From a virus (Duplodnaviria > Caudoviricetes): a stretch of 64,000 nt of DNA. The position numbers and the translations under genes are program-made. Positions within the stretch are counted from its first letter, which is position 1; every line of letters starts with the position of its first letter. The stretch is from positions 1 through 64,000 of the IMG/VR virus record IMGVR_UViG_3300011560_000001. One strand, given 5' to 3'. Positions 38,865-56,905 of the stretch are shown in pieces. The notes beneath the pieces are model-generated. The model did no database searches. It saw only the letters and a list, made by a program, of their open reading frames with translations, and had not been told where the DNA came from.

Positions 38865-39013
38865 CGTAGGGAAAAGTTATGCGGCATTTTTAGTGTTGTA
38901 TCACAACCTCAATAACGGTAAGTGTTTACTGATACTATAGTGGCGCATGCACGCGTGTACGCTATGGTCTATCGACCGACTTATATAAGTTAATTCTGTA
39001 AAGGATACTTTCA

Positions 39014-41236: not shown

Positions 41237-41323
41237 ACTACCGTAGCTGCTTCGTTGGATGATATTCTTGATGACAACGTTGCGGATGGTTTCATTGCAC
41301 CGGACATTCATCCGGCACCGTGA
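41234..41323 (+). other. probable stop-codon read-through extension of the MCP (X-TTVAASLDDILDDNVADGFIAPDIHPAP*)
   Basis: 28 in-frame sense codons between TGA 41234-36 and TGA 41321-23; the terminator follows the second stop; peptide motif shared with baseplate proteins. Confidence 0.65.
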
Positions 41324-41333
41324 TACATAAGTC

Positions 41334-41367
41334 AGCCTCCCTCAGCCCGTAAGGGTTGGGGGAGGTT
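41334..41367 (+). terminator. hairpin family copy 6 (variant with a fully paired stem and GTAA loop)
   Basis: AGCCTCCCTCAGCCC-GTAA-GGGTTGGGGGAGGTT flanked by CATA and TCTATG. Confidence 0.75.
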
Positions 41368-41408
41368 TCTATGCCGTTTATCGTTGCGAATAGAAAAAAT
41401 TTGACGCT

Positions 41409-41424
41409 TACATTACCTAGGTGA
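41409..41424 (+). promoter_or_regulatory. candidate phage (early-type) promoter, copy B
   Basis: TACATTACCTAGGTGA is identical to 34930-34945; lies upstream of the non-structural unit that includes the nvRNAP subunit. Confidence 0.6.
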
Positions 41425-41573
41425 CAGAAGCCTGCGATTAATAAGGCATAGACAGCACGTAAGGTCGTTCTCGCGCTAGGGGCGATACTGAAACCGTCGG
41501 CTGTCGGTTTGATAAGAACAAGAAAAGGGAAATGCATCATGCATGATATTTTTCAATCTGATGGAGGTTGACA

Positions 41574-43010
41574 ATGCCCTCCATGCCAATATGTGATACC
41601 GCGTTTGAGCCGTGGGATGGCACACACGCATATCGCATTGACGGTTATGCTGAACCGTTATATGACCTGGAATTAGGGTGGGCATGTATTAATGAATCCG
41701 GCCATACCGTGTTGGTTATCACCTCCGACAATATGTTCCAGTACATTCCTGGTAGAGTTGAGGACGGTAATACATTCAGGATCGTACGACGTTCAAAATT
41801 TCGTAGTCCTGTAATAGTTGACAGCCATGACGTATCTAATGCGAATGGTGCATTCAGAAACTTCGTCTACGCGGGTAGACGTCGGGATATACTCCGTGTT
41901 AAAAACGGAACAGGTTATGCAATAAGGAAACCGCATATCCGTCGTATCGTTAACACAGAGAAAATACCGCGTCTATTAGACCAGCAAGACTGGTACGATA
42001 CGCTGGACGAGATATGTCAAATTGACCTCAACACGTTGAACTTTAATCAACCTATTTATGTCGCGCAAATCAACGTGGCAATCGTAAAAGTTAAAGGAGA
42101 ATACAAAAGCGCAGACCATGTTACGAAAGGGATTGATCACCCCTACATCGCAACCTGTGCGCGGAGCTTAACAGGAAAGACAGAGGGTTTCCGGATTCTC
42201 GGAACACAACTCACTATCCATTGGACGCCGCCCGACTTTCATAACCCGTACAGTCTATGGGTTAACGTGCTGGGAAAAGCGTTCGAAATAAAGCCAACGA
42301 ATGGCGCAGGCGCGCCAGGTATGTTGGTTACCTTCGGGAATAATGACTCCATCTTCGTACCGGTCGAAGATTTGGAAAAAGAGATGTGGAAGTACAATGT
42401 TTTTCCGACACGCGAATCGGCATTGCATTGGCGCGACCCCATCCAAAAAGAAGCCTACAAAAATGATTTCGACCAGCGTAGCTACGAACGTAAGGCATCA
42501 GAAGAAACCCTTAAAGGGGTGATGGCTGAAATGCGACGTATGGCGGATGAACACAAGGCAGTTATCGCACAGATGCATGAGGCGCATCGCGCTGATGCAA
42601 AGCTGCGTGATGAACAACATAAAGCCGAACTCGATCAGCTTAAAGACGAACAAAAACGTAGGATGGAACAACACCAAGCCGAAATGAAACGTCAAGATGA
42701 TCTACGTAGACAAATACACGAAGATTATCAAGCTGATTTAAAACGTCGTGATGACGAGGCTAAACGCAAACATGAAGAATTCGTCGCTGAACTTCGTCGT
42801 CGAGACGAAGAATCCAAACGTAAGCACGACGAGTTTGCTGCTGAGATACGTCGACGTGATGAAGAGGCAAAAAGACAACGTGAAGCGGAAGAAGCGCGAC
42901 GTCAACGTAACGTCGATGTTTGGAAAGCCGCTGCGAGTATAACTGCGGCCGTTGTCGGTATAGGTATGACCTTTTTCAAGATTCTTGAGAAGGCGTCATC
43001 GAAAAAGTAA
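41574..43010 (+). CDS. protein with a long charged helical stalk and a C-terminal membrane anchor
   Basis: GGAGG RBS; E/R/K/H-rich 18-aa repeats; hydrophobic AAASITAAVVGIGMTFF followed by a basic tail. Confidence 0.75.
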   Translation: MPSMPICDTAFEPWDGTHAYRIDGYAEPLYDLELGWACINESGHTVLVITSDNMFQYIPGRVEDGNTFRIVRRSKFRSPVIVDSHDVSNANGAFRNFVYAGRRRDILRVKNGTGYAIRKPHIRRIVNTEKIPRLLDQQDWYDTLDEICQIDLNTLNFNQPIYVAQINVAIVKVKGEYKSADHVTKGIDHPYIATCARSLTGKTEGFRILGTQLTIHWTPPDFHNPYSLWVNVLGKAFEIKPTNGAGAPGMLVTFGNNDSIFVPVEDLEKEMWKYNVFPTRESALHWRDPIQKEAYKNDFDQRSYERKASEETLKGVMAEMRRMADEHKAVIAQMHEAHRADAKLRDEQHKAELDQLKDEQKRRMEQHQAEMKRQDDLRRQIHEDYQADLKRRDDEAKRKHEEFVAELRRRDEESKRKHDEFAAEIRRRDEEAKRQREAEEARRQRNVDVWKAAASITAAVVGIGMTFFKILEKASSKK

Positions 43011-43046
43011 CTTTAATCTGCTTAAGCAACTTTCTGAAAGGAGTGT

Positions 43047-44846
43047 GTGATGGATCCTAGATTCTGCAAAGCTGTCGCTGAGCTTGCACCGAAGATGAAC
43101 GAGAAGATAGCACGCAACATCGTCGTCGATAAGATGCAAGATGTTGAGTCCTATGTTGATCGTCTTTGGCGGAACAGCAAAGATAGTTTACCTAAGGATC
43201 TGGTGTATCATGGCCTGCGTCGTTGTATGGCCCGCGAACAGTTCCACTACTTAAGCGGAGGAAAGAAAACCAAAGGGAAGGATAGCGGTAAACTGACGTT
43301 CGACCTTGCGCCTTCCGATGTGTTCATGGTGATGTTAGAATTCCGCTGGTACGGCGCGATGGAAGCAGGTGACCGTCGTGAACCCGGCAAGGATTACTGC
43401 ATCATCCGGCATCCTCTCCTATTACCCGCGGTAGGTCAGGGTGGTAAGATGCGTCTACGTGGTGCGAACTTCATTCTCAGTGCGGTACTCGCTGACCCCG
43501 TAATCAGTTACACGAAAGACATGGCGTTCATCATGCTTCCGCGTGACAAAATCACGGTTAAACGTACACCGTATCAGTTCCTGAGCAATGATACACCGAC
43601 CGGTATCGATTATCGACATTACTTGTCATTGCCCTGGTCGCAAATCTATCACCTTACCAAACAAAGCAAGGTGAACGGGGACAACATCAACCACACCAGC
43701 GTAACCACGTTGGGTCATTATCTCTTTGCGAAATATGGCGTGGGTGAATGTTTCCGACGTTTCGCAGGCGTCGAAGCGATCACCGGACGGAATCTCGCTG
43801 AACGTGATTTTCCGCGTGACCAATGGGTAATCTATCGCACCATGGGGGTTATTCCTAAAGGCTTTAGTATCAGCAAAAGCGGTAAAAGCCGTAGCGCTAG
43901 CGCTGTACGTTATAAACATCCTGATATTCAAATTGCTGTAAGACGTGGAGGCACGGAACGTATTGTTCTTGGCCTTGTCGGTGCATTCTTGTATCTCATC
44001 GACCGTTATTACGATCGTTTTCCGGAAGACTATCCGGTTGAGGAGTTCGCGAATGCGCCAGACCATTGGCGTACATTACTCGGTTTGATTATCTTTAATA
44101 ACAACAATGCGGATGCGCGTTTGTTGCGTGATGTAAACCACCACATCGACAGTCTCGATCTTTACGTTGATGAAATTCAACAGAAGAAGTTCAAACAGGA
44201 AAATATTCCTTGCGACGACTTCTACGAATTTATGGCGTATCTGATTGACAATGTCACTATCGAAATGAGTCGTGTTGATACCACGACGATGTTCGGTAAA
44301 GAACTGATGGTGTTGGAATACGTCATGGAGGATGTGCGTAAGAGCATCTTTAAACTGGGGTTCCATCTTAAAACCACTGAACGTGGTAAACGACAGAACA
44401 ACCGGAAAGAGATGACCAATCGCGATGTACAAAAAGCGTTACGTAATCAAGTTGCAACAGAAGCGATTCTCAACATCCAGAGCAATCGTGATAAACGCGA
44501 GAAAGTGGCAACCTCGATTCAATCACCTGGTGACTGCATGCTGTTCAAAGTAAGTACACATGTTGTTCTCCAGAGTCAAAATGCGGGCGGTGCTGCATTG
44601 GCTGACGAGAGTCGTTTGGTGAGCGGTTCCATCCCGTTCTGCGCGAGCTATCTGAATCTTCCGCACTCCGAACCAACCGGACGCCAGAAGTTCAGTATGT
44701 ACGCACCTATTGACGATCGTGGTCGGTTAATCATTACCCCACAAATCGCAAATGACGTTGCAGCAACAAACGCAGGCTTGAAGAAAGACGTCGGTCGATT
44801 CGATGAAGAAATTGTAGAAATTAACGATCGTGACATAATCGATTGA
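43047..44846 (+). CDS. non-virion RNA polymerase beta subunit, N-terminal part (phiKZ gp123-like)
   Basis: HPLLLPAVGQGGKMRLRGANF corresponds to the beta region P-x-M-T-x-x-G-T-F-x-I-N-G; C-terminal PHSEPTGR; size and synteny match. Confidence 0.8.
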   Translation: MMDPRFCKAVAELAPKMNEKIARNIVVDKMQDVESYVDRLWRNSKDSLPKDLVYHGLRRCMAREQFHYLSGGKKTKGKDSGKLTFDLAPSDVFMVMLEFRWYGAMEAGDRREPGKDYCIIRHPLLLPAVGQGGKMRLRGANFILSAVLADPVISYTKDMAFIMLPRDKITVKRTPYQFLSNDTPTGIDYRHYLSLPWSQIYHLTKQSKVNGDNINHTSVTTLGHYLFAKYGVGECFRRFAGVEAITGRNLAERDFPRDQWVIYRTMGVIPKGFSISKSGKSRSASAVRYKHPDIQIAVRRGGTERIVLGLVGAFLYLIDRYYDRFPEDYPVEEFANAPDHWRTLLGLIIFNNNNADARLLRDVNHHIDSLDLYVDEIQQKKFKQENIPCDDFYEFMAYLIDNVTIEMSRVDTTTMFGKELMVLEYVMEDVRKSIFKLGFHLKTTERGKRQNNRKEMTNRDVQKALRNQVATEAILNIQSNRDKREKVATSIQSPGDCMLFKVSTHVVLQSQNAGGAALADESRLVSGSIPFCASYLNLPHSEPTGRQKFSMYAPIDDRGRLIITPQIANDVAATNAGLKKDVGRFDEEIVEINDRDIID

Positions 44847-44880
44847 CACCTAATCGAATAAATAAAAGGATTGTAAGAAG

Positions 44881-47472
44881 ATGTATAACGGTAACAACAT
44901 ATACCAACAAATGGGCTATAGCGAGAACCCGTACGCAAGCACGGTTCGATTTGCAGCTGACCAGGTGCGTCAACAACAGTACCAGCAACCGCAATATCAA
45001 CAACCTCCGTACCAACCCCAGCAACCGGCTTATCCACAATACGGGGGCGGTTACCAACAACCACCGCAATACCAACCTAATCCAGCATATCAGCAGAACT
45101 ACCAGTTCATCACCAACGAAGGAAATATCGTCAAAATCCGTCAGGCTATCTTTAATGTCCTGAAAGAGCATGCCCAGCAAGACGATATTCAAACACAGTT
45201 CGTGGCACGTTACGCCAATAACAACGAGGCGATGGAGTCACTTGTTGAAGACTGCTGCTGGAACGTATTCTCTTACATCAACCCAGCACCTCAGAATGCT
45301 TCAGTCGATCAGATTATCGACACCGCGGTACGTACAACGATACTTATGCATCTTGTACAGTGGCTCTTTGAGGCCAATCAATATCCTGAGTATTATCGTG
45401 CAAAGGAATTAACGCGCATTAACCCGGAAGCAGCGAATAAGTACACACAACTGAATCAAGGTGGAACTCTGAGTCAAATCGCGCAGAAAACACGTGCGTT
45501 GAAATCGCAGGTAACGCAGTTGGGAATGACCTATCGCGGACCGCAAGCAAACGCGATGGTCAACACCGGATACGGTCAACCTCAACAACCTGTGTATAAC
45601 ACGTACGGTGGAGCTTATCCTCAACCGCAGTACCAACCTAATCCAGCGGTTATGCGTGGTATGGCTCCGACAATGCCAGGATACGGCACACAACCTCGAC
45701 CAACGGTTGTTCAGCAGCAAGCACCTTCGTATATGGATTCGAAGGAGTGTGCATTCAACCGTTTGTACGATGTTGGTGATGATGACCCAGTTGACGATAA
45801 ACCTGCTCCGGCAGCAACACGTCGGGAAGCACCACAAACGCGTATTTACTCAACCCATCCTGAAGGAGATATTGGTGGTATCAACGATATCTTTGCAGCG
45901 GCTGAGCAATTTGCTGAACAGTACGAAGAGCCAGAATGGCATGTTAAGGCTGGGCAGCAGAAACCCGTTCAACCTGAACCTGCGCAGGTGAAACCAGAAC
46001 CCGTTCGTACGGCTCGTTCTGCTACGGTAACAAAGACCGTTAATCCAATTGATGCGACCGAAGATGCTAAGCGTTACGGTCGTGTTGTTCAACATGAAGA
46101 ATTTATGCAGATGCGTCTGAAAGCCAAAGACTTTGCACCTAATAGTCGTTGGCCGACGTTGTATGACTTCAGGCACTTCGCTCGTCGGGCACGTATCGAC
46201 GAAAACGGAATTCTTCATGAAACCATTGTCGACATTACATCCCTCACGGAGGAAGAAGTGGAATACATCGAACTTGAATCAGACCCAACCGCTCGTCGTA
46301 TGGCAGAGCAGGAAATGGCAAAACTGGATCGTATCGCGCAAGCAGAAGTTGTTCGTGTTAGTCTTAACAAGCCTGTTCAGCGTGAACCAATCGTTGTCGG
46401 CGAGCAGCGCGAAATGAAACTGTTTACCGTCACCGATGCGATCGCAGCGTCAAGCGTTGAGGATGCTGAAACCAAAGCTTCAGTGGCGATCATTCAGCAG
46501 ACCAACACCGACGTCAACCAAAACGACGCATTAGCATTCCTGGCTACGGTCAATTCCTATCTGGGAACCTATACCGACAAAGAGCTGGATGCAATCCATG
46601 AATTCCTGGATGCTTTGTCTATTGATAAAGGTCGCAGCGACGATATCAAAGCTTATCGTCAGATCATGCAACAGTATCGAGATGTCATTCCTCTGCGTAT
46701 CTGGCATTTCCTGAACGATAGCATGACCAAAGACGTCAATAAGCTGATCAAACGTATCGTACCGAAGAACTTCTCTGAAACCACCATCTCTAGCTTCGTT
46801 GATGATATCGGAGAACTGTCCGGTTGGCTGATTCACGATCTTAAAATGGACCAGAAGTTCATTGAAGATGAATTCGCCAATTGCTACTACACCTGGGTCA
46901 ACATGCTGAAGTGTCTCTACTGCAATCGTGATGGCGAAGGTCAGTGGAACATTCGTCTTTCCATGGCTGAACTGTACAACATGCATGACTACCTGAAAGC
47001 CGCTCACGAAAAATCAGCAGCGAATCGTGAACGTCATCTGGTTGCCATGAGTGAGTATCGTGCAGAACTGGAGAAAGATGGCTCTCTGGATGCTGACGAA
47101 ATCGAACGTCGTTTGGCGGATGCGGCTACCGAAGACATGCGTGTTAATCCAGACATCGTCACTGACGAAGATAGCAACGATGCTTACTGGTTCAATCACA
47201 GCGTATTCGCGATGCGTCCGCATGTTGTTGTTCGCGTACCGACCAACGCCAAGATTCTGAAGCTGAACCAGAGCGGTTACACTCACGCATCGGCTGCAAC
47301 CAACCCAAGCATTGCTCGTATGCTGGATCAGGTGTTCAAGACCTTCGAAACCAAAGTAAAAGGTCTGCAATCTGTTACCGTGATTCTGAGTGATGATACT
47401 CGTCTGAAAGCAGTACGTACGGTAAACGGTATTACCGCTTCCGAGTACCTGCTGGAACGCGACGAACAGTAA
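44881..47472 (+). CDS. conserved hypothetical protein with Q/P/Y/N-rich low-complexity regions (863 aa)
   Basis: QQQYQQPQYQQPPYQPQQPAYPQY and GYGQPQQPVYNTYGGAYPQPQYQPN tracts; folded-looking C-terminal half. Confidence 0.75.
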   Translation: MYNGNNIYQQMGYSENPYASTVRFAADQVRQQQYQQPQYQQPPYQPQQPAYPQYGGGYQQPPQYQPNPAYQQNYQFITNEGNIVKIRQAIFNVLKEHAQQDDIQTQFVARYANNNEAMESLVEDCCWNVFSYINPAPQNASVDQIIDTAVRTTILMHLVQWLFEANQYPEYYRAKELTRINPEAANKYTQLNQGGTLSQIAQKTRALKSQVTQLGMTYRGPQANAMVNTGYGQPQQPVYNTYGGAYPQPQYQPNPAVMRGMAPTMPGYGTQPRPTVVQQQAPSYMDSKECAFNRLYDVGDDDPVDDKPAPAATRREAPQTRIYSTHPEGDIGGINDIFAAAEQFAEQYEEPEWHVKAGQQKPVQPEPAQVKPEPVRTARSATVTKTVNPIDATEDAKRYGRVVQHEEFMQMRLKAKDFAPNSRWPTLYDFRHFARRARIDENGILHETIVDITSLTEEEVEYIELESDPTARRMAEQEMAKLDRIAQAEVVRVSLNKPVQREPIVVGEQREMKLFTVTDAIAASSVEDAETKASVAIIQQTNTDVNQNDALAFLATVNSYLGTYTDKELDAIHEFLDALSIDKGRSDDIKAYRQIMQQYRDVIPLRIWHFLNDSMTKDVNKLIKRIVPKNFSETTISSFVDDIGELSGWLIHDLKMDQKFIEDEFANCYYTWVNMLKCLYCNRDGEGQWNIRLSMAELYNMHDYLKAAHEKSAANRERHLVAMSEYRAELEKDGSLDADEIERRLADAATEDMRVNPDIVTDEDSNDAYWFNHSVFAMRPHVVVRVPTNAKILKLNQSGYTHASAATNPSIARMLDQVFKTFETKVKGLQSVTVILSDDTRLKAVRTVNGITASEYLLERDEQ

Positions 47473-47521
47473 TTGACGATGGGTATTGTTAACGCGATAC
47501 CCTAGTTGATAAGGAAACCCT

Positions 47522-47797
47522 ATGAGTCATTATAAACTCATTACTGTCCCGATGGACGCAAAGGACTTACGCGAAATCGTTTTAGCAACCGAAGCAATCC
47601 AAATGGATGCTGTACTGATGGCGTACGAACGTTACCAGCTTTTCCTTTCGGTAAACGCTACGGTAGCCCGTATGAAACAGAAGTACCAGGCTCAGCTAAC
47701 CGTAATCGACCAAGGTGCTGTGATCCCACCACACCCTAGTTGGCGCGTATTGCGAAGCAACCTCACCACAATTGAATCGTGGTTAACCTCGAGATAA
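47522..47797 (+). CDS. small hypothetical/virion protein (91 aa)
   Basis: TAAGGA RBS; ends at the hairpin terminator. Confidence 0.65.
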   Translation: MSHYKLITVPMDAKDLREIVLATEAIQMDAVLMAYERYQLFLSVNATVARMKQKYQAQLTVIDQGAVIPPHPSWRVLRSNLTTIESWLTSR

Positions 47798-47814
47798 GTT
47801 AAATAGCGCATAGC

Positions 47815-47848
47815 CCTTCTCCCCTTACCTTACGGGTTGGGGAGAAGG
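47815..47848. terminator. hairpin family copy 7 (convergent junction)
   Basis: CCTTCTCCCC-TT-ACC-TTAC-GGG-TT-GGGGAGAAGG flanked by CATA and TATG, T-tract downstream. Confidence 0.75.
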
Positions 47849-47877
47849 TTAACTATGTGTTATTTTTTTACATCCGT

Positions 47878-50787
47878 TTAGACAACGCCACCTGAAGTGT
47901 CGTCTTCTGACGTTGTGTCGGTAGTCGTTTCCTCAGATGTGGTTGTTTCTTCTGTTGAGGTTTCCTCCATCGTTTCGGTATCGAAATCGGTATCTCCGAA
48001 ATCGTCACCGCCACCGAAGTCATCAGAAGAACCGGTATCGCTACTTGAATCGGATGACCACGAACCATCAGATGAAACGCTGCCGTCCTGTGCTTGAGCT
48101 CCCATCTTCTCTTCAATCTTCTTCGTCAGATTCTGGATATACAATGCAAAATCACCCATGCATTTACCCATGACTTCAATATGTTCCATGGACATACGTT
48201 TCCAATCTTGCACGGCATTCTTCTTATCGTCAAGACTGAAGAGATCAGCCAGCTCCTGATTGAAGTTGTTCTCTTTTGCCCACGTACGCATCGCGGTACC
48301 AATAATGCATGCGCGGATCATCTGCAGCGTTGTTTCATCAACCCCACCCAGACCCATGACGTAATCAGGCGTTAAATAATCATCAAGTTGCGCAGTAATC
48401 GCTTCCTTGTACTGATTATATTCACGTACCTGGTCTTCAAGGCGACGAGCATTGCTATCCGGTAAACGCACACGCAGGCTGTTTAAGAACATGGACACAT
48501 AAGCATCGGCAATAACTTCCTGGACTTCTGGTTTAGTGTAATCCAGATCCATTGTTGCTGATTGGTCGTCAATCTCCTGATAGGCGTTAACGTTACGGAT
48601 AACACCGTTTTCGAAATCGCTACCAAAAAGCTGCTTCAATTGTGCCTGGGAGAGCTTAGACATGTTCGCACGAACCGTGTTTCGTAACGACGTCAACAAC
48701 ACGGGACTGTATGCCGTATATTTCTTGATGTGGTCCGATAACCCATTCGTGATCACCTCACGACAAACCGTGAACTGTTTCTCTTGCATCGCGTTAGCTG
48801 TAATCACAGAAGCTGCGAATTCAGATTGGTAGGAAGTATCGATAATCTCCGGAGACACACCCAAGCCCATGAAATGGTCACGACGGTAACGATCCATCAG
48901 CTCATTATCAGGAGACTGATAGTTACGCTGCTCAACACTGACGTCTGTATTCAATTTCGGGAAGCGTGGGTTATTCCCCTCAACCTTCAATCGAATCGAG
49001 CTTCGTTCATACGCGTTGATGATATCCATCGGGTTAGTTTCACCCAACGGGAAACCAGACTGGTAGACACGAGCGAAACTATGCAGCGCTTGTTCGACGG
49101 TATCGACCGGGTTTCTGTCGGTGTCTTCAAGCATTACACTCAGCGTCGTATAGTTCAACGAACTTTTGATTTTTGCCATCAGTTCTTGAACCATGAGCAT
49201 GGCTCGTTGCGACGAGATCATCTTCGTACTTTCAAGCAGCGAACGACCGATACCGTATTTGTTGTATTCATAGGCGATGTAAGTCACCATCTCTCGAGGA
49301 ATAAACAAAACACGGGTCTGCTTGTGAGCGAGGCTACGGGCAAGCATCGACAGATAAAACGATGATGTCGCGCCGATTTCCACCGCACTGCCAAGATAAC
49401 CGTTGACAATACGTTCAACGATGTAACGTTGCATCAGCGATTCGTACGACGATACGAAGGCCGACATGTCTACCTGATTACATGACGTACCTTGGATCAT
49501 GTTCTTGGCTGCACCAATCATCTCGCTCGCCATGCCGTTGCTTGACGTGCCTGCGATATCTGCAGTGATCTTCGACAACCGACCTTCCAACTGCTTGTAA
49601 TACGCAGCATCTTCAACCAAACGCACCGGATAACCAAACTCATCCAACTGAACCAAATATCCGATATGGTTCTCCGGATCACCAGGCGCATGTACAGGTT
49701 CTAATGCCTCAGGTGGTACGTGCATCACACCAGGATGACCGACGCTTTGACGATCGAGTGTATCTGGGGTTGCCAGCGCGTAAACGGGAGATACCTTGGT
49801 GTGACGCTGGATGTTGAGTTTATTCCAGATCTCGTTAACCTGTTCTTGCGTCAGCTCACGTCGGTTAGCGGTTAGGGTTGGGTCACCTGACAGCGTTACC
49901 AAACCACTACCTCCTAACGTGTTTGCACGTAACGCACGTTGTACCGCGGTCGCCGCTCGACGCTGATGCAGAATGGGCATGCGGAGGATATCCGGGTTAT
50001 CGACAACCGTAACCATATCCGGAATATCGATCTTCGCTTCAATGAATTTACCGTCCTTATCACGAAGCAGGGTATTGGTAAATTTAATGCTGTCTATGCG
50101 AACAACAGGATCGTACGGTATGGTTTCATTAACGCCTGAGAAATAATCTTCCATCGAAACCGTCGCAGGTAATTGATTTTCGTGGCGTTTACGACTGTCG
50201 TTACCTAGAAGCCCCCAACTTGCAAAATGGTTGTCTTTAAATCCGTATTCTTCAAGTTTCAGTTGACCGTTACCATTAATAGCGCGGTCGAGCGTGCTTT
50301 CCGGCAGAACAACGAAGTTATAACTACCCTTGATAAAGAAGACGTCTTCGATGATACGCGGGATAAGCGTCTTTATTTTATAGATATTCTTAAAATGCGT
50401 GTCGATGGTATCGATCATCGGCTGAACGATTTCTGCGACTCTGCCGGGGAAATCTTCGCTGTCGATAAACATCTCGACCGTCTTAAGATCGTTAGGGTTC
50501 GTCAACGCGGCAACATAGATCTGCATCACGCGTTTAAGTTCAGGGAACAACTCGAGGATGTTTTTATTATCCTCGATGTTTGTCGCGGTCGCACGCGTAA
50601 CCGTGTTCATCGTCATTTGGTCGGGAACAACTAACCCGAAACGACCGTTCGCTCCTTCCGCATCACGTGTATTATAAAGACGTGACTGCGGAGCAGGAGC
50701 GACAAATTTGTTCATGAGTGCCTTCGCAACGTCATTATTGCTCATTTGACGTTCGAGGGCGACGCGCCCTTTATTTATATCGTTCAT
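47878..50787 (-). CDS. portal protein (phiKZ gp129-like, 969 aa)
   Basis: GIGRSLLE, HIGYLVQLDEFGYP and MGLGVSPEIID portal-type motifs; acidic S/T/D/E C-terminal tail; AAGGAG RBS; synteny. Confidence 0.78.
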   Translation of the reverse strand: MNDINKGRVALERQMSNNDVAKALMNKFVAPAPQSRLYNTRDAEGANGRFGLVVPDQMTMNTVTRATATNIEDNKNILELFPELKRVMQIYVAALTNPNDLKTVEMFIDSEDFPGRVAEIVQPMIDTIDTHFKNIYKIKTLIPRIIEDVFFIKGSYNFVVLPESTLDRAINGNGQLKLEEYGFKDNHFASWGLLGNDSRKRHENQLPATVSMEDYFSGVNETIPYDPVVRIDSIKFTNTLLRDKDGKFIEAKIDIPDMVTVVDNPDILRMPILHQRRAATAVQRALRANTLGGSGLVTLSGDPTLTANRRELTQEQVNEIWNKLNIQRHTKVSPVYALATPDTLDRQSVGHPGVMHVPPEALEPVHAPGDPENHIGYLVQLDEFGYPVRLVEDAAYYKQLEGRLSKITADIAGTSSNGMASEMIGAAKNMIQGTSCNQVDMSAFVSSYESLMQRYIVERIVNGYLGSAVEIGATSSFYLSMLARSLAHKQTRVLFIPREMVTYIAYEYNKYGIGRSLLESTKMISSQRAMLMVQELMAKIKSSLNYTTLSVMLEDTDRNPVDTVEQALHSFARVYQSGFPLGETNPMDIINAYERSSIRLKVEGNNPRFPKLNTDVSVEQRNYQSPDNELMDRYRRDHFMGLGVSPEIIDTSYQSEFAASVITANAMQEKQFTVCREVITNGLSDHIKKYTAYSPVLLTSLRNTVRANMSKLSQAQLKQLFGSDFENGVIRNVNAYQEIDDQSATMDLDYTKPEVQEVIADAYVSMFLNSLRVRLPDSNARRLEDQVREYNQYKEAITAQLDDYLTPDYVMGLGGVDETTLQMIRACIIGTAMRTWAKENNFNQELADLFSLDDKKNAVQDWKRMSMEHIEVMGKCMGDFALYIQNLTKKIEEKMGAQAQDGSVSSDGSWSSDSSSDTGSSDDFGGGDDFGDTDFDTETMEETSTEETTTSEETTTDTTSEDDTSGGVV

Positions 50788-50814
50788 TTACACTGGCTCC
50801 TTGGAGGACCGATC

Positions 50815-53226
50815 GTGTCCAACACTGACTATCAGCTTTATTCGGAAAGCGTGCAGCGTCTAACGGACACCCTGATTATTAAAAGCGACATCACGGCAGA
50901 ACGGTTAAACCTCAAGGTTTCCGAAGTCTACCAGATGGCCGTCGGGGACGACCCACGCACGTGGTTATACTACATGAATCTCGCTGGCGAGTATCATCCT
51001 TGTCAGACAATGATGACCGTAAATTCCCTGGATACGCTCGAAGAGATCGAGTTCACCAAGGAAAACATGTTACGGCACCGCATGACGGCAAGGGAGTACG
51101 CGTATGGTGGAGATTATTTCAATCGTTTAATTGCGCGATACCCGGAACAACGTATGTTGATCTTGGGTATCCTTAACCCCATCGATATCGAGAAAGCAAT
51201 TGCGGCACGCAATCATGAGATTCTCTGGTACGATACACAAGAGGTTGAGTCACGCGAGGCCAATCTTATTCCGCGTTTACAGCAAGAAATCGACGATTAC
51301 TTCAGACGCTGGGAACATCCGGCATACGAGAGCGTCGATATGCTTCATTGGCCTGCGCTATACGCCATCCTATTCACACAAATACCTGAGATGATAAAAG
51401 GTATTCGTTGGGAAAACTGTCATACCCATTATGCCCATAGCTTCCATATCTGGAGTTATCTGGCAAGCCATCAAGGTCTCGATCGATTCAAGCGATACAT
51501 GACCGAATCCCAAATGCTCTGGTTCTATCGTAACATCGCTTACGTTGAAAGAAACATGGGCAGAACGGAAAACTACGATAAGCTCATTCAAAAGGTATTA
51601 ACCGATCGTGGGATTCCAATCGGTGCGTTCTCGATCAAACAAGACGCTTCCGGGATACCCCAGACGTTAAAACCCGCAGTTTACATGGAGCGTAAACCGC
51701 TTAACCTTCAAGAGATCGTCGGTAATGGCACGGTAAGACGTAAGGTCACCACCGTGATGCAACAACAGTTCCCTCTAGCGCGGGATAACGAAGCGGAGTA
51801 TTATACCGAGCTTAACCGCACGATAGAGAAGATGTCGATGCACGACAATAATACCTTAACAACCAAGGTATTGGAAAGTGAAGCGGAAGATCTTACCGAC
51901 AGTGAGTTATACCCGAAATACGATTTCTTGCTCAACGAATGGATCCATCTGAGTTCCATCGGTATGTATCAGTCACGGTTAACCACCACCAACCCGGTGA
52001 CGGGTGATACCATGACGATGTCGATGAAAGATGCATACAAGCTGTTCTTGTATTTGCTGAACTATTCGATGGGTATGCCGCTGATTGAAGTGCCTAAGAT
52101 CCATGCTAACCATGTCAGGGTGTTAACGCTACCAACATTCGATCATCTCCGCAGCATTACCGATCCTGCTATCATTCCCGATAAACTGATCTGGTGGTGT
52201 TTGGATAAGCAAGTAACATTGCGTCCGGTCGTCAGCACTGAAGAGTTTCTCAACGTCGTTACCGAGATCTATCAGGGCTGGCGTCGCCATCAATTCATGT
52301 ACCAGCTCCAAGAGCATTATCAAGCTCGAGGTATGGCTGAAGCAATCGTTGAAAACTTTTACGTGGATGTTGGTGTCGACTTCGGTATTGGGCAGCTTTA
52401 CAAGGAATGGTTCTTAGCGATGGATTGGGAGCTTGATGCAATCAGTCAAGAAGAGGCGGGAATTCTAGCTCTCGATATCTTCACAAAGGCTACCGGTCAA
52501 GATTTGGAAGACGTCACCAGTCTTAAGGATATTCAATACGGAATGCTGCAGCTGCTTAAGACATTGAGCAGTTACACCATCCATTTTATCCAGACAATCA
52601 ACAGCGATCCAATCAAGCCGCTAAACAAAATCGCCGTTCGTCTTGGTTCGAGTTTAGTAAGCGGTAGTGAAGAACTGTGGGAAGACTGGGCACAGGCAAA
52701 CGTTCATGATACGGATAACCAGGCTACGGAAGTTATCAAATTCGTACATGATAACAACCCGATGACGAACTGGCGCGAATCGGCGGTTGAAAGTTTGGAA
52801 GCACCTCCGAAACCAACCTGGTGTGACTGTAGCGGTTACGAGAATACCCAAACCGTTCGATTCAGTACGCAATATTGGGCGCAAGTCATCAGTGATCCTG
52901 TCTCGTTACGTTTCCGTAAAAACCCGCTCGATGGTTTGTGGCTTGCACCGTTCCCGGGTCGGGCACCACGCGACCTTCGTGAGCGTTTACTGTCGGAGTC
53001 GCTGCATGGGCTGACCATAAACCCGATCAAACCGTTCGAACAACGTTTCCGTAAACGTGATCTTCGAGGTCTTTGGATAGAACCAATCTACAAACAGGTG
53101 AATGGTCGTTTCAGGTCAGCGGTTCTAAGTGAGACGAATCATGTTGCGTATAAGCCTGTCAGTATGCGTCTATCGAATCCGCTCAATCGTTTGATTGTTA
53201 AACCTTTGCCTATCGAGGACGCTTAA
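50815..53226 (+). CDS. baseplate structural protein (phiKZ gp128-like) with five C-terminal ~20-aa repeats
   Basis: GGAGG RBS before GTG 50815; WLYYMNLAGEYH and AHSFHIWSYLASH motifs; divergent from the portal. Confidence 0.68.
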   Translation: MSNTDYQLYSESVQRLTDTLIIKSDITAERLNLKVSEVYQMAVGDDPRTWLYYMNLAGEYHPCQTMMTVNSLDTLEEIEFTKENMLRHRMTAREYAYGGDYFNRLIARYPEQRMLILGILNPIDIEKAIAARNHEILWYDTQEVESREANLIPRLQQEIDDYFRRWEHPAYESVDMLHWPALYAILFTQIPEMIKGIRWENCHTHYAHSFHIWSYLASHQGLDRFKRYMTESQMLWFYRNIAYVERNMGRTENYDKLIQKVLTDRGIPIGAFSIKQDASGIPQTLKPAVYMERKPLNLQEIVGNGTVRRKVTTVMQQQFPLARDNEAEYYTELNRTIEKMSMHDNNTLTTKVLESEAEDLTDSELYPKYDFLLNEWIHLSSIGMYQSRLTTTNPVTGDTMTMSMKDAYKLFLYLLNYSMGMPLIEVPKIHANHVRVLTLPTFDHLRSITDPAIIPDKLIWWCLDKQVTLRPVVSTEEFLNVVTEIYQGWRRHQFMYQLQEHYQARGMAEAIVENFYVDVGVDFGIGQLYKEWFLAMDWELDAISQEEAGILALDIFTKATGQDLEDVTSLKDIQYGMLQLLKTLSSYTIHFIQTINSDPIKPLNKIAVRLGSSLVSGSEELWEDWAQANVHDTDNQATEVIKFVHDNNPMTNWRESAVESLEAPPKPTWCDCSGYENTQTVRFSTQYWAQVISDPVSLRFRKNPLDGLWLAPFPGRAPRDLRERLLSESLHGLTINPIKPFEQRFRKRDLRGLWIEPIYKQVNGRFRSAVLSETNHVAYKPVSMRLSNPLNRLIVKPLPIEDA
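52900..53223 (+). repeat. five tandem peptide repeats [VLF]-x-x-R-[FL]-x4-L-x-G-L-x-[IL]-x-P
   Basis: VSLRFRKNPLDGLWL / LRERLLSESLHGLTI / FEQRFRKRDLRGLWI / VNGRFRSAVLSETNH / VSMRLSNPLNRLIV. Confidence 0.75.
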
Positions 53227-53285
53227 CGTGATAGTGCAGCAAATCGTAAAGTCTTTTTTAATTAATTCCTGGCGTGGAGGTCACC

Positions 53286-54221
53286 GTGAGTGATACGGTA
53301 ACAACTATTGACGACACCGAACTTTACCCGGTCGACGTCTCTTTACCCTCATCCGATCTCGTGTATGGTCTTATCAACCACGATAACCCACCTCAGAACG
53401 GAGAACATGTTCTAACCCCTGAATTATTGGTTTTAGGGACACCAACCACCAACCAAAGCGCCTACGAGCGCGATACCCAGATTACGGCAACGGCAACCGC
53501 TAAGCTTACCGAGTTAGACGATTATGAAGGTTCGACGACGCTGTATTACGATCGTATTAACATCGGTGCGTATCTACGTAACGTAGCACCTATTCTTATC
53601 GATGCGCCAGATGCCACCAAGATGCGTGATATCTGGCCTATCATCAAAGAACGTTTCGGTCTCGGCCTTACCGCAGAAGAAATTGTCAACGACGAACTTA
53701 ACTGGGATACCGTTAACGGACAATTGCTCCGTGTCGTATCTAATTGCCTGGCTTGGACGGGAAGTGTTCGTATCTTGATGAAATCGCGTGTACCGAATCT
53801 TGATGATATTATCGCGATCAAAGAGCTCGATGGTCTTAAGTTCTTCGGACAGGGCGTACGCGCTAGCGGTGAGATCTACAGTTACAGTCGTGATACTTCT
53901 GATTACGGTGAGTTGCTGGCTTCGCTGGTAACAGGTACGGTCATTAGCGATGTGGTGGTCGCCGATCTTCTGGCTGAAATGACCGCCAATCGTTGGGTAT
54001 TAGACGACAACATCGCACCGTATAACCTGTATAATGCTAAAGTGGCTTTCAACGGTGAGTTGGGTGGACGTATTCCAGCACGAGCAGGTTACCAATACGG
54101 TATCGAGATCAGTCTGGATGAAAACTACTGTACTGCTGTCGGCGGTCCATTGATTTTCTATTACAACGTCGACGGACATACCGCAAGCCTCCAGGGTCGT
54201 TCTCCAGAAGAACAAGGCTAA
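53286..54221 (+). CDS. baseplate/tail-fibre adaptor, phiKZ gp131-like paralog 1
   Basis: Y-D-R-I ... AWTGSV domain, LDDIIAIKELDGL linker, NLYNAKV C-terminal domain; GGAGG RBS before GTG. Confidence 0.65.
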   Translation: MSDTVTTIDDTELYPVDVSLPSSDLVYGLINHDNPPQNGEHVLTPELLVLGTPTTNQSAYERDTQITATATAKLTELDDYEGSTTLYYDRINIGAYLRNVAPILIDAPDATKMRDIWPIIKERFGLGLTAEEIVNDELNWDTVNGQLLRVVSNCLAWTGSVRILMKSRVPNLDDIIAIKELDGLKFFGQGVRASGEIYSYSRDTSDYGELLASLVTGTVISDVVVADLLAEMTANRWVLDDNIAPYNLYNAKVAFNGELGGRIPARAGYQYGIEISLDENYCTAVGGPLIFYYNVDGHTASLQGRSPEEQG

Positions 54222-54231
54222 GGAATAAACA

Positions 54232-55083
54232 ATGAGTCAGAAATTGTTAAACAAAAGTCCTAAAGTACTGGTCGCCGAACTTATTCAGGCCGCCAATCCT
54301 GACTTCGACTTTAACTTCGATGCGCTTGAGATCACGGATGCTGCTGAAAACGGAAACCACGCGTATAAACGGAACACCCGCGCTAAGGTATCGCCTTCGG
54401 CAACAGTAACGCCAGCACAATACCGTGAAAGCAGCTACGTGTGGTACGATCGTATTCCTATCCAAGACTTCTTCTTGGGAATGGAACCGAAGCTCGCTAT
54501 CGATGCCGGGGTTAAAACAACGCACGATCTTATCCCTCTGATCCAATCGACGTACGGAATCGTTATCGATCGGGATAGCTGCGTCGATTCTCCGATTGTT
54601 CGAGGGAATGAATACCCATTCCCTCATGTCGTAGAATTGAAAACAACCGGATTGGCTTGGACGGGAAGTGTTACATTCTACCTCCTCGATAGCGCACGCG
54701 ATATTGCGGGGATGATGAAGACCACGGCGATGGCCGGTCTCAATTTCCCGTACTACACCGCAAATCGTATCCAAGCGTTGGTCTACAGTTACGCTATAGA
54801 CTGCACAGCAATCCGTTCCGATCTTGCCGGGTTAAAGGTTGGTGGTAACCTAAGCGCAATGGTTAGCTTATTCAACAACGTTGCACCAACCCCATGGGTT
54901 TATAACGGCCGTGAAGACGAAAACAACCTTTACGGGGCTACCGTACTCGCAACCGGTAAAACAACAGAACTTATCGCACAGGGTTATCCTGTTAACCCCG
55001 CGTTCGCTAACGCTGTTATCGTTACGCTTAGCCAAGATTACTGCACGAACTACGGCGGTATCCTGTTGATGCAATATAACTGA
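54232..55083 (+). CDS. baseplate/tail-fibre adaptor, paralog 2
   Basis: YKRNT, WYDRI, AWTGSV, IAGMMKTTAMAGL and NLYGATV align with paralogs 1 and 3. Confidence 0.65.
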   Translation: MSQKLLNKSPKVLVAELIQAANPDFDFNFDALEITDAAENGNHAYKRNTRAKVSPSATVTPAQYRESSYVWYDRIPIQDFFLGMEPKLAIDAGVKTTHDLIPLIQSTYGIVIDRDSCVDSPIVRGNEYPFPHVVELKTTGLAWTGSVTFYLLDSARDIAGMMKTTAMAGLNFPYYTANRIQALVYSYAIDCTAIRSDLAGLKVGGNLSAMVSLFNNVAPTPWVYNGREDENNLYGATVLATGKTTELIAQGYPVNPAFANAVIVTLSQDYCTNYGGILLMQYN

Positions 55084-55099
55084 TTAAATAGGAAAAGAC

Positions 55100-55984
55100 A
55101 TGGCTTCTACACAAATCCGTGCTACCGATCGTATCGTCCGTACGATTATCGGCGGTCAAGTACAAACGAACCTTACGCTCGGTCTTCCTCATGCGTGGGA
55201 AGAACACAGCACCTTGAACGAAAAGCTTCAGATTCAATCAAAGATTTACCCCGACGGTAATCCTGCTGTACGTTACTTCTGTATCGGCAACCAAGGTCAC
55301 GAATTCATCCGCAACGCTAACGGCATCCCTTCCTCGATGCCGATCGCTCACGAAGCAAGCGATCTTTCACCATGGAAAATCAAACCTTTCGTGATGCGTG
55401 AAGTTGGTAACGATTTGACCACGGACGAACGTGCTAGATTTGGGTTACGTCGTATTGAGACGCTGGAAAACGGTAAAAAATACATCTGTTATTACGGTCG
55501 TCGCATCGATTTCGATAACGTTGTCCGCTCCATGCGATATACCAAGTACATCGATGGTGTTGCTCAGACTATCGAATGGCATCCGACCGACAAGAACCTC
55601 AACCCACCCCGACCGGATATTCCAACAACAGGAATTCTGGTGGCGACCGGGGAGTATTACGATTATAGCTGTAAAGTCTCTTTGGTTTGGACACCATGGG
55701 ATATTAACGAATACCTCAATGTAGCTAAACTCACCGAGGGTGGTGAAGAGTACGCGGTTATTTCTGAAATTGGGATGGTCTCCGCCGGTGACAAAATCGT
55801 TCGTGCTGATGATGGTCAAGGTTCTGCCTTCGACATGAACGAAATCGTCGGTGCGCAGGTTACCGACCTGATTTCGACTTACCACAACCTATTTACCACC
55901 AACGATACGCTGACGTTGAAATACGACCTTGGTGCGTTGGAAGCTCGTAAGGCAGGCCCGACGGGCGCAGAAATCCTACCGTAA
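55100..55984 (+). CDS. conserved virion/baseplate protein
   Basis: HSTLNEK, YFCIGNQGH, PFVMR...DL and AVISEIG motifs of a conserved phiKZ-like structural family. Confidence 0.65.
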   Translation: MASTQIRATDRIVRTIIGGQVQTNLTLGLPHAWEEHSTLNEKLQIQSKIYPDGNPAVRYFCIGNQGHEFIRNANGIPSSMPIAHEASDLSPWKIKPFVMREVGNDLTTDERARFGLRRIETLENGKKYICYYGRRIDFDNVVRSMRYTKYIDGVAQTIEWHPTDKNLNPPRPDIPTTGILVATGEYYDYSCKVSLVWTPWDINEYLNVAKLTEGGEEYAVISEIGMVSAGDKIVRADDGQGSAFDMNEIVGAQVTDLISTYHNLFTTNDTLTLKYDLGALEARKAGPTGAEILP

Positions 55985-55999
55985 CCTAAGGGGTGTTAA

Positions 56000-56905
56000 A
56001 TGGAGTACAGTGAAATCCTAGGGTTAGAATCGAAAGAAATCCTCTTTCGGCTGATTCGAAAGCATAGCGATTTCGATGCTCGAGGCGTAACGCTGGATAA
56101 ACTGGTTATCGGTGAGGCTTCTGAAAGCACAGGGTACAAGCGTAACAGCAAGTTAACCGTGCATCCCCAACCGGGTTCGGGGCTGGTGAACTCTGTCGAC
56201 ATCTATTATAACCGCGTCGATCTTGGTAAACTGGGTATTTGGCCTGGTGGACAGCACCGCTGGCCCATCGAGATCGAAACCTTAGATACACTAACCAAGG
56301 TCTCTGAGATATTACCTGTCTTAGCATCAACGTACGGTATCCTTCTCAATAAAACCGAGATCGTCGACGCGGATCTGGATAAATCCAAATCACCGATACA
56401 TGTTGCGATAACACCTAAACCTGGTAACCAAGTATGGGTTGGTCAATTACTTGTTGAGTTAACTTCAGGACATAACGACCTCAACAACCTCATTCGCAAC
56501 AATATGTTGGCTGGGTTGAATTATCTCATCGATCGAGATAGTGATAAACTCCCGGGCGCTATTGTTTCGTACAACTGGTTCATGTCTGATGATGTTCTAG
56601 CGTCACTTACTGATGGGTATACGTTAACCTCAGGTGATATGCAATCAGAAGCACTAATCGCAGAAATGAACATGCTGCAATTGGGTCTCTCTGAAGAGAT
56701 CGATGGTCTTACGGCCAACGATCGCTGGGTATTGTCGGCAACGCCTGGACCGCTCAACTTGCAGAATGCGAGAGTAATAGCCGATCCAGAGCATTTCAAA
56801 ACACTACCATTTGGTGTACGTACAGACGCTCGTAAAGCTGTTGTACTTCAACTCAGTGTGATGAATACGCTCATCGACGGTTATCTAACGTTATACGTGG
56901 CATAA
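56000..56905 (+). CDS. baseplate/tail-fibre adaptor, paralog 3
   Basis: YKRNS, YYNRV, VWVGQL, LNNLIRNNMLAGL and NLQNARV. Confidence 0.65.
   Translation: MEYSEILGLESKEILFRLIRKHSDFDARGVTLDKLVIGEASESTGYKRNSKLTVHPQPGSGLVNSVDIYYNRVDLGKLGIWPGGQHRWPIEIETLDTLTKVSEILPVLASTYGILLNKTEIVDADLDKSKSPIHVAITPKPGNQVWVGQLLVELTSGHNDLNNLIRNNMLAGLNYLIDRDSDKLPGAIVSYNWFMSDDVLASLTDGYTLTSGDMQSEALIAEMNMLQLGLSEEIDGLTANDRWVLSATPGPLNLQNARVIADPEHFKTLPFGVRTDARKAVVLQLSVMNTLIDGYLTLYVA

Follow-up and report, generated by a model that had tools for sequence, protein, structure and literature searches.

A linker motif of DUF7941 filament proteins and its probable role in the wedge-protein tail of a Goslar-like jumbo phage

The closest described system is the "fiber cloud" of Escherichia phage vB_EcoM_Goslar, for which Basu et al. 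(Sci Adv, Nov 2026; bioRxiv, Apr 2026; PMC13742148) report DUF7941 proteins built of an N-terminal domain (NTD), a linker that is disordered, and a C-terminal domain (CTD). According to section 14 of that paper, AlphaFold 3 predicts the linker to dock on the NTD of the next protomer as an intermolecular beta-sheet, and gp23, which has no CTD, is still predicted to oligomerise head-to-tail. Filaments were shown for Goslar gp22 only (purified protein, negative-stain electron microscopy), the number of DUF7941 copies per virion is given as ~2,700, and the cloud is proposed to be anchored at six peripheral-baseplate sites. Section 11 of the same source describes gp35 as the upper-wedge equivalent of T4 gp7; gp35 directly contacts gp32, and five gp32 dimers form a spoke. 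Here we analyse a stretch of 64,000 nucleotides (the window; positions 1 to 64,000 of the IMG/VR virus record IMGVR_UViG_3300011560_000001), in which a short "LDGL" peptide is found in three neighbouring DUF7941 proteins, in variant tandem copies in the tail of the gp35 homolog, and in a marginal form behind the stop codon of the gene for the major capsid protein (MCP).

The region is 95% identical at the nucleotide level to Goslar, and on this identity the phage is assigned to the Chimalliviridae as a Goslar-like jumbo phage of E. coli. The explanation we favour, with a probability of roughly 0.6, is that the DUF7941 linker is a docking peptide, that the tail of the wedge protein is a multivalent anchor for it, and that the copy behind the MCP stop is there by chance. 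The genes that carry the first two parts of this explanation lie next to each other:

50815..53226, plus strand: baseplate upper-wedge protein, homolog of Goslar gp35 and phiKZ gp128 (PDB 11lx_Bh, 1830 bits; 9xqs_C PHIKZ128, E = 2e-110; phrog_3222, E = 6e-209)
52900..53205, plus strand: wedge-tail repeats, five in tandem, proposed multivalent anchor for DUF7941 NTDs
53274..54221, plus strand: DUF7941 protein, gp34 homolog (Pfam PF25613, 213.5 bits), with the linker motif LDDIIAIKELDGLKFF at 53799-53846
54232..55083, plus strand: DUF7941 protein, gp33 homolog (Pfam PF25613, 160.4 bits; weak PDB match to PHIKZ127), with the linker motif IAGMMKTTAMAGLNFP at 54703-54750
55100..55984, plus strand: baseplate spoke protein, gp32 homolog, DUF7208, T4 gp8-like dimer (Pfam PF23838, 319.6 bits; PDB 11lx_Aa, 666 bits, PHIKZ139)
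56000..56905, plus strand: DUF7941 protein, gp31 homolog (Pfam PF25613, 181.3 bits), with the linker motif LNNLIRNNMLAGLNYL at 56480-56527

All three DUF7941 proteins, hereafter the adaptors, lie above the PF25613 gathering cut-off of 27 bits, and the gp32 homolog sits among them, between the gp33 and gp31 homologs. The wedge reading frame also holds a possible TTG start at 50746. The start was placed 23 codons further on, at 50815, after the 803-aa Goslar protein, with which the PDB chains agree.

Alignment identifies the "LDGL" peptide as the linker motif conserved in DUF7941, a chimallivirus-specific family of tail-associated filament proteins. Its consensus, [DS]-L-x2-[IVL]-[ILV]-x4-L-x-G-[LF]-x-Y-P, follows immediately on the last (W-x-G) strand of the NTD. 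In more than 135 diverse homologs, drawn from a profile search of the family (2464 cluster representatives), no segment behind the NTD is better conserved than this one, the column frequencies of which are 0.86 (L), 0.83 (L), 0.70 (G), 0.83 (L/F), 0.77 (Y) and 0.60 (P). A profile of our own detected nine DUF7941 paralogs in this genome, and eight of the nine carry the motif. The three adaptors share the NTD-linker-CTD architecture with the motif directly behind the W-x-G strand (paralog alignment, family columns). Their copies occupy one homologous position in paralogous proteins, and are therefore not independent of each other. All peptides named in an earlier note on this DNA do translate as written there (41255-41293, 53799-53837, 54703-54741 and 56480-56518, with the wedge tail at 52900-53223). 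The generic 13-residue pattern by which that note had connected them, h-x2-h-h-x4-h-x-G-h, is no signal by itself, as a scan of the proteome gave 30 occurrences versus 24.7 +/- 5.0 in shuffled proteins, which is background. What exceeds chance is the family motif in the adaptors and the repeats in the baseplate tail, whereas the copy behind the MCP stop is marginal.

The homolog of gp23 (genome positions 67289-67819, minus strand, 176 aa) consists of the NTD and the peptide only and ends nine residues after the G-F of the motif. Its tail has natural variants, namely N161D, E165D and, in one case, F167S. Hence, in the population, the most abundant DUF7941 protein is polymorphic in its docking peptide. 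The number of family members differs between records, with 19 DUF7941 matches in the record of Xanthomonas phage LucasX and 5 Pfam matches in RAY, next to the nine found here. Many of the LucasX matches are NTD-only or without the canonical linker motif, a hint that they may terminate or cap chains. In many metagenomic DUF7941 proteins (P0016, P0033, P0108, P0127, P0141 and others; also P0039) a single chain comprises two or three units of NTD plus motif and can be regarded as a covalently linked head-to-tail oligomer. A protein of 4717 aa gives 21 partial matches.

In the mechanism that we consider, the free docking peptide would be disordered and would become ordered on binding the NTD of the next protomer, giving rise to head-to-tail chains. 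Two kinds of natural fusion proteins were modelled with AlphaFold2. In P0108, a tandem protein of two NTD-plus-motif units (mean predicted local distance difference test score, pLDDT, 85; predicted template modelling score, pTM, 0.68), a pLDDT of 85-88 was reached by the motif lying between both NTDs and one of 41-43 by the free motif at the C-terminus. Such a contrast is in keeping with a peptide that needs a following NTD to become ordered. P0271 is a wedge protein fused C-terminally to the motif and a DUF7941 NTD (899 aa; 24 contigs, the longest of 234 kb; Pfam 39.7 bits). In a model of its residues 700-899, in which the downstream NTD alone is present, the motif reached a pLDDT of 85-92. 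The only PDB relative of this NTD is the solved phiKZ gp127 (9xqd_0, E = 2.9e-7).

A different reading of the motif would be that of an intrachain structural element, which packs on the domains of its own protein and binds nothing in trans, the gp22 filaments being formed via other surfaces. It can draw on the fact that head-to-tail docking rests on structure prediction, in the published work as well as here. Our AlphaFold2 models were judged by pLDDT and secondary structure and contacts are not visible in them, so that ordering by the following NTD is read from them indirectly; moreover, the folding alignments derived from tandem proteins, which hold the motif in cis by construction. These points weigh against our interpretation as well. 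Nevertheless, the motif behind the last NTD of P0108 is disordered despite the presence of its own NTD, while the copy ahead of another NTD is ordered, and in the P0271 fragment the motif is ordered in the absence of any preceding NTD. In addition, proteins of the gp23 type possess nothing else than NTD and motif and Goslar gp23 is predicted to chain, and the tandem copies in wedge tails lack a domain of their own on which they could pack. An intrachain role is thus regarded as very improbable, and docking in trans is retained. The suggestion in the earlier note that the peptide behind the Y-x-R...W-x-G domain is captured by the domain of another protomer, with the adaptors chaining head-to-tail, agrees with the published predictions and gp22 filaments and with our cis-fusion models. 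The filament and docking core of that idea is already known, since it was published by Basu et al. in 2026, and the remark that no description of such a system was known does not hold for this part. The text searched of the same paper makes no mention of tail repeats in gp35 and does not define the sequence motif. New here are the motif consensus, the tandem copies in wedge tails, the fusion of wedge and DUF7941 proteins, and the tandem-NTD proteins.

The tail repeats of the gp35 homolog all lie in its last ~110 residues. Three of them read L-x-G-L-[WT]-h-x-P, namely repeat 1 (52900-52950, PLDGLWLAP), repeat 2 (52969-53025, SLHGLTINP) and repeat 3 (53035-53085, DLRGLWIEP); repeat 4 (53098-53157, VLSETNHVA) and repeat 5 (53158-53205, PLNRLIVKP) are degenerate. 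Three L.GL occurrences within ~110 aa have a Poisson probability of 5e-5. In two relatives (P0159 and P0160), the wedge proteins of which are 61-63% identical, all five positions read LxGL, and in comparison with close relatives the substitutions concentrate in the repeats while the G-L is invariant. The wedge chain of the composite virion structure (36za_sR) ends at gp35 residue 595; therefore, the last ~208 residues, including the repeats, are missing from that chain. A homolog search with the gp35 tail alone gave matches in the Goslar lineage only, and a Pfam scan of wedge tails yielded no known repeat family.

Similar repeats occur in the wedge tails of other chimalliviruses. RAY gp7 has four LxGLW repeats, LUCX_291 of LucasX has about ten [VM]LDDLxYP repeats, and in metagenomic wedge homologs ELDGLxYP or LDGFxYP occurs in as many as 11-12 copies. 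Many wedge tails contain the exact DUF7941 core LDGLxYP. With a matrix of eight columns, which was built from DUF7941 linkers only and applied at a threshold of at least 12 bits, 61 matches were found in 16,531 aa of wedge tails versus 0.5 +/- 0.6 in shuffled tails, and a single match in 73,909 aa of wedge cores. Of the 121 wedge homologs, 23 have one or more canonical copies and 13 have two or more. The P0271 fusion is a Rosetta-stone link between the wedge and the DUF7941 families. The gene order from wedge to DUF7941 is kept in Goslar, RAY, LucasX, the phiKZ-like SL2 and also L035 and L036, which are the nearest sister phages (reached via the contigs of the wedge protein; wedge 61-63% identical). 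The wedge repeats of LucasX and RAY were also compared with the DUF7941 linkers of the same phages for co-variation; the linkers are heterogeneous.

The enrichment of the motif across lineages, the fusion of wedge and DUF7941 proteins, the conserved synteny and the P0271 model together make it likely that the wedge tail is a multivalent anchor, and we infer that in the present phage, too, it probably serves as such for DUF7941 NTDs. Each copy in the gp35 tail (core L-x-G-L-aromatic/aliphatic-x-P) could capture one DUF7941 NTD. The foremost candidates are those of gp34, gp33 and gp31, which are encoded next door, and these would then recruit further protomers (gp22, gp23) via their own linker peptides. 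Per baseplate this would offer up to ~30 attachment points (6 x 5) instead of six. The earlier note had seen about five sockets in the baseplate tail. The number stands, as putative docking sites supported by motif enrichment, fusion and synteny, and the polarity has to be reversed, as the tail would carry the ligand peptides and the DUF7941 NTDs would be the sockets.

Several observations speak against such an anchor. The repeats of this very phage score below 6 bits with the DUF7941-derived matrix (they have W or T and a P that is shifted, and the G-L is lost from repeats 4 and 5), and a hidden Markov model (HMM) of the motif with 22 positions, used in a six-frame scan, finds the DUF7941 linkers and misses the gp35 repeats. 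Wedge tails of the phiKZ type and wedge forms of ~695 aa have no such repeats, and the DUF7941 protein gp127 of the solved phiKZ baseplate adjoins the gp139 dimer that lies outermost, far away from the body of the wedge; its anchoring in phiKZ is evidently a different one. The tail repeats are a lineage-variable addition and not a defining feature of the wedge family. The low scores and the position of gp127 at the far end of the spoke would also suit a scenario in which the repeats are real and bind some other component (one repeat per gp32 dimer, gp220 or tail fibres) or form a flexible spacer, the LxGL likeness being convergent or vestigial. The direct contact of gp35 with gp32 and the coincidence of five repeats with five gp32 dimers per spoke speak for it as well. 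Across wedge homologs, however, the copy number varies from 1 to 12, yet in Goslar as in phiKZ a spoke consists of five dimers, and the phiKZ wedge has no repeats at all. The exact LDGLxYP core in many wedge tails and the existence of a wedge-to-DUF7941 fusion speak against this scenario, as does a true DUF7941 linker, that of P0052, which reads LDGLWLPS and is nearly identical to gp35 repeat 1. Another binding partner or a spacer function is therefore considered rather unlikely, albeit the most serious competitor, and an anchor for DUF7941 NTDs remains the preferred function of the wedge tail.

The third occurrence of the peptide lies at the end of the capsid gene:

39014..41236, plus strand: MCP gene, Goslar gp41 homolog, 740 aa, ending in AAC-TGA (Pfam PhiKZ_MCP, 724 bits; PDB 11bt_Ar, 1625 bits, residues 1-740)
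41237..41323, plus strand: in-frame stretch behind the stop, 28 codons and a second TGA, containing LDDILDDNVADGF at 41255-41293
41336..41365, plus strand: G+C-rich hairpin directly after the second stop, probable MCP terminator, read from the sequence

The earlier note had proposed that read-through of the MCP stop adds this peptide to the capsid. Under such a model low-level read-through of the TGA would supply a few capsid subunits with a gp23-like docking peptide, and DUF7941 filaments or decoration would be found on the head as well. The local sequence has several properties that are in line with it. The stop is a TGA followed by A, and TGA makes up only 24% of the stops of this genome; 28 open codons follow, and the hairpin 3' of the second stop places the stretch on the mRNA. 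Among 46 genomes of the Goslar clade, neither the TGA and the second stop nor the 28-codon frame varies. In all six frames of the genome nothing but gp23 itself matches the gp23 tail better than this peptide, which aligns end to end and likewise has nine residues after the G-F, and natural gp23 variants share the run DNVADGF with the extension. The invariance of the frame and the quality of this match weigh against an origin by chance. With the motif HMM the peptide, which was added by hand to the set, scored highest of 142 post-stop peptides (7.8 versus 5.7 bits for the next). The MCP C-terminus is located at the hexon centre, where the C-terminal arms form a six-stranded barrel that neither helps nor excludes read-through, and ~2,700 DUF7941 copies per virion would be hard to hang on six sites.

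However, these match scores are near noise. The gp23-tail score of 33 is followed by scores of 31 and 30, and at the DNA level, where the extension is likewise the single best match genome-wide, 40 of 78 nucleotides agree versus 39 for the next. In a six-frame scan of the genome the 7.8 bits correspond to an independent E-value of 2.1, and among 5754 short random segments, 4 attain the HMM score that ranked first among the post-stop peptides. Behind 70 of 249 genes the frame likewise stays open for 28 codons or more after the stop. The extension is not conserved as coding sequence: in both sister phages, L035 and L036, the MCP gene ends in TAA, with the next stop after three or nine codons, and the peptide is located in an insert of ~50 nt that is specific to the Goslar clade. 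The 46 clade genomes comprise seven haplotypes, with 3 synonymous and 9 non-synonymous changes (neutral expectation, 24.6% synonymous), a ratio that rejects strong purifying selection. Read-through is not mentioned by Basu et al. as far as a text search for the term in PMC13742148 goes. The MCP relatives among viral contigs are either identical or only 36% identical at this locus.

An origin of the extension by duplication of the gp23 3' end was considered and rejected, as the nucleotide homology extends no further than an 8-mer and the sequences that follow downstream show no relationship.

The stretch 41237..41323 is most likely an untranslated 3' region, and its resemblance to the docking peptide is probably due to chance. 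This origin is likely and not certain, because the extension is the best genome-wide match to the gp23 tail and its frame is invariant in 46 genomes. A functional read-through of the MCP stop is judged improbable: the extension is absent from the sister phages and its substitutions look neutral. It is correspondingly doubtful that a low read-through rate places gp23-type peptides at a few hexon centres, so that filaments would hang on the capsid in addition to the 6 x 5 wedge-tail sites in a number set by that rate. If this long shot were true, it would represent a recently evolved, recoding-controlled head-fibre system in a double-stranded DNA jumbo phage. Altogether, the observation made in the earlier note is partly confirmed, and its interpretation is partly supported.

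Around the end of the MCP gene some further features were noted. The 80-nt segment 41321-41400 folds into a long G+C-rich stem with a total energy of -37.2 kcal/mol, and the hairpin after the second stop is kept in L035 and L036; a simple terminator scan did not call it. The intergenic region 41324-41567 is ~5% diverged in the Goslar clade versus ~7% at third codon positions of the MCP gene, and is probably composed of the terminator and the regulatory region of the next gene. An antisense open reading frame of 766 aa (39011-41311, minus strand) spans the whole MCP gene and exceeds the MCP in length. The codon bias of the MCP gene has probably produced it as a side effect; the third-position changes of the extension hit antisense first codon positions, so the antisense frame is not the conserved one there.

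The 2026 Goslar structure left two questions, i.e. how the abundant DUF7941 filaments attach to the virion and what fills the peripheral baseplate. A docking motif of 8-17 residues together with its 1-12 copies on wedge tails would be a concrete and cheaply testable answer to both. The proposal amounts to a multivalent scaffold of short linear motifs on the equivalent of T4 gp7 and, if true, would give Goslar-type phages ~30 rather than six anchor points. It would also explain the constant succession of wedge and DUF7941 genes, and suggests that expansion and contraction of the repeats tune the number of host-recognition filaments per phage. Furthermore, the motif may be a handle for the display of cargo on jumbo-phage virions.

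Recoded minor capsid proteins are known from phage Q-beta, in which A1 arises by UGA read-through, and from T7, in which gp10B arises by a -1 frameshift. The proposed MCP extension would resemble both in being sub-stoichiometric, C-terminal and generated by recoding at the end of a capsid gene. In contrast to these it is read from DNA alone, not conserved in the sister phages and neutral-like in its changes, and is not counted as a member of this group. Chaperone-usher pili (FimA, PapA) share with the proposed DUF7941 chains a short subunit extension that augments the sheet of the next subunit, the head-to-tail polymers and a peptide that is unstructured until bound. In the pili, an N-terminal extension completes an incomplete Ig-like pilin fold, with the help of a dedicated chaperone and usher. 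They differ in that the donor peptide is here C-terminal to the acceptor domain, and neither chaperone nor usher is involved. A PDB fold search with the DUF7941 NTD returned only phiKZ gp127 (9xqd_0) and no pilin-like match; the DUF7941 chains are thus not a member of this class. The cellulosome scaffoldin with its cohesin-dockerin pairs offers a likeness of organisation, i.e. one anchored polypeptide with several tandem docking sites and modular partners, and the functional domains displayed here (carbohydrate-binding, hydrolase and leucine-rich repeat domains) invite the same comparison. The polarity is reversed, however, since the scaffold of the phage would carry the short peptides and the partners the folded receptor domain, and these partners would also be able to polymerise further.

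T4 gp7 is the hub for gp8 and gp10 and binds its partners through folded domains. The gp35 homolog is its structural equivalent and contacts the gp8-like gp32 dimer, and in both phages the wedge protein joins the inner baseplate to the host-recognition parts. Here, by contrast, attachment is proposed to occur by a disordered tail of repeated short linear motifs, the copy number of which ranges from 0 to 12 between phages. The closest system of all is the fiber cloud of Goslar (gp22, gp23, gp31, gp33, gp34 and others) with its phiKZ counterparts gp126 and gp127. It has the same genes (homologs of gp34, gp33 and gp31, ~95% nucleotide identity), the same NTD-linker-CTD architecture, the same proposed mechanism of a linker docking on the next NTD and the same location at the peripheral baseplate. 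Where the published description, in the text searched, assumes six anchoring sites, our analysis adds tandem docking copies on the wedge tail.

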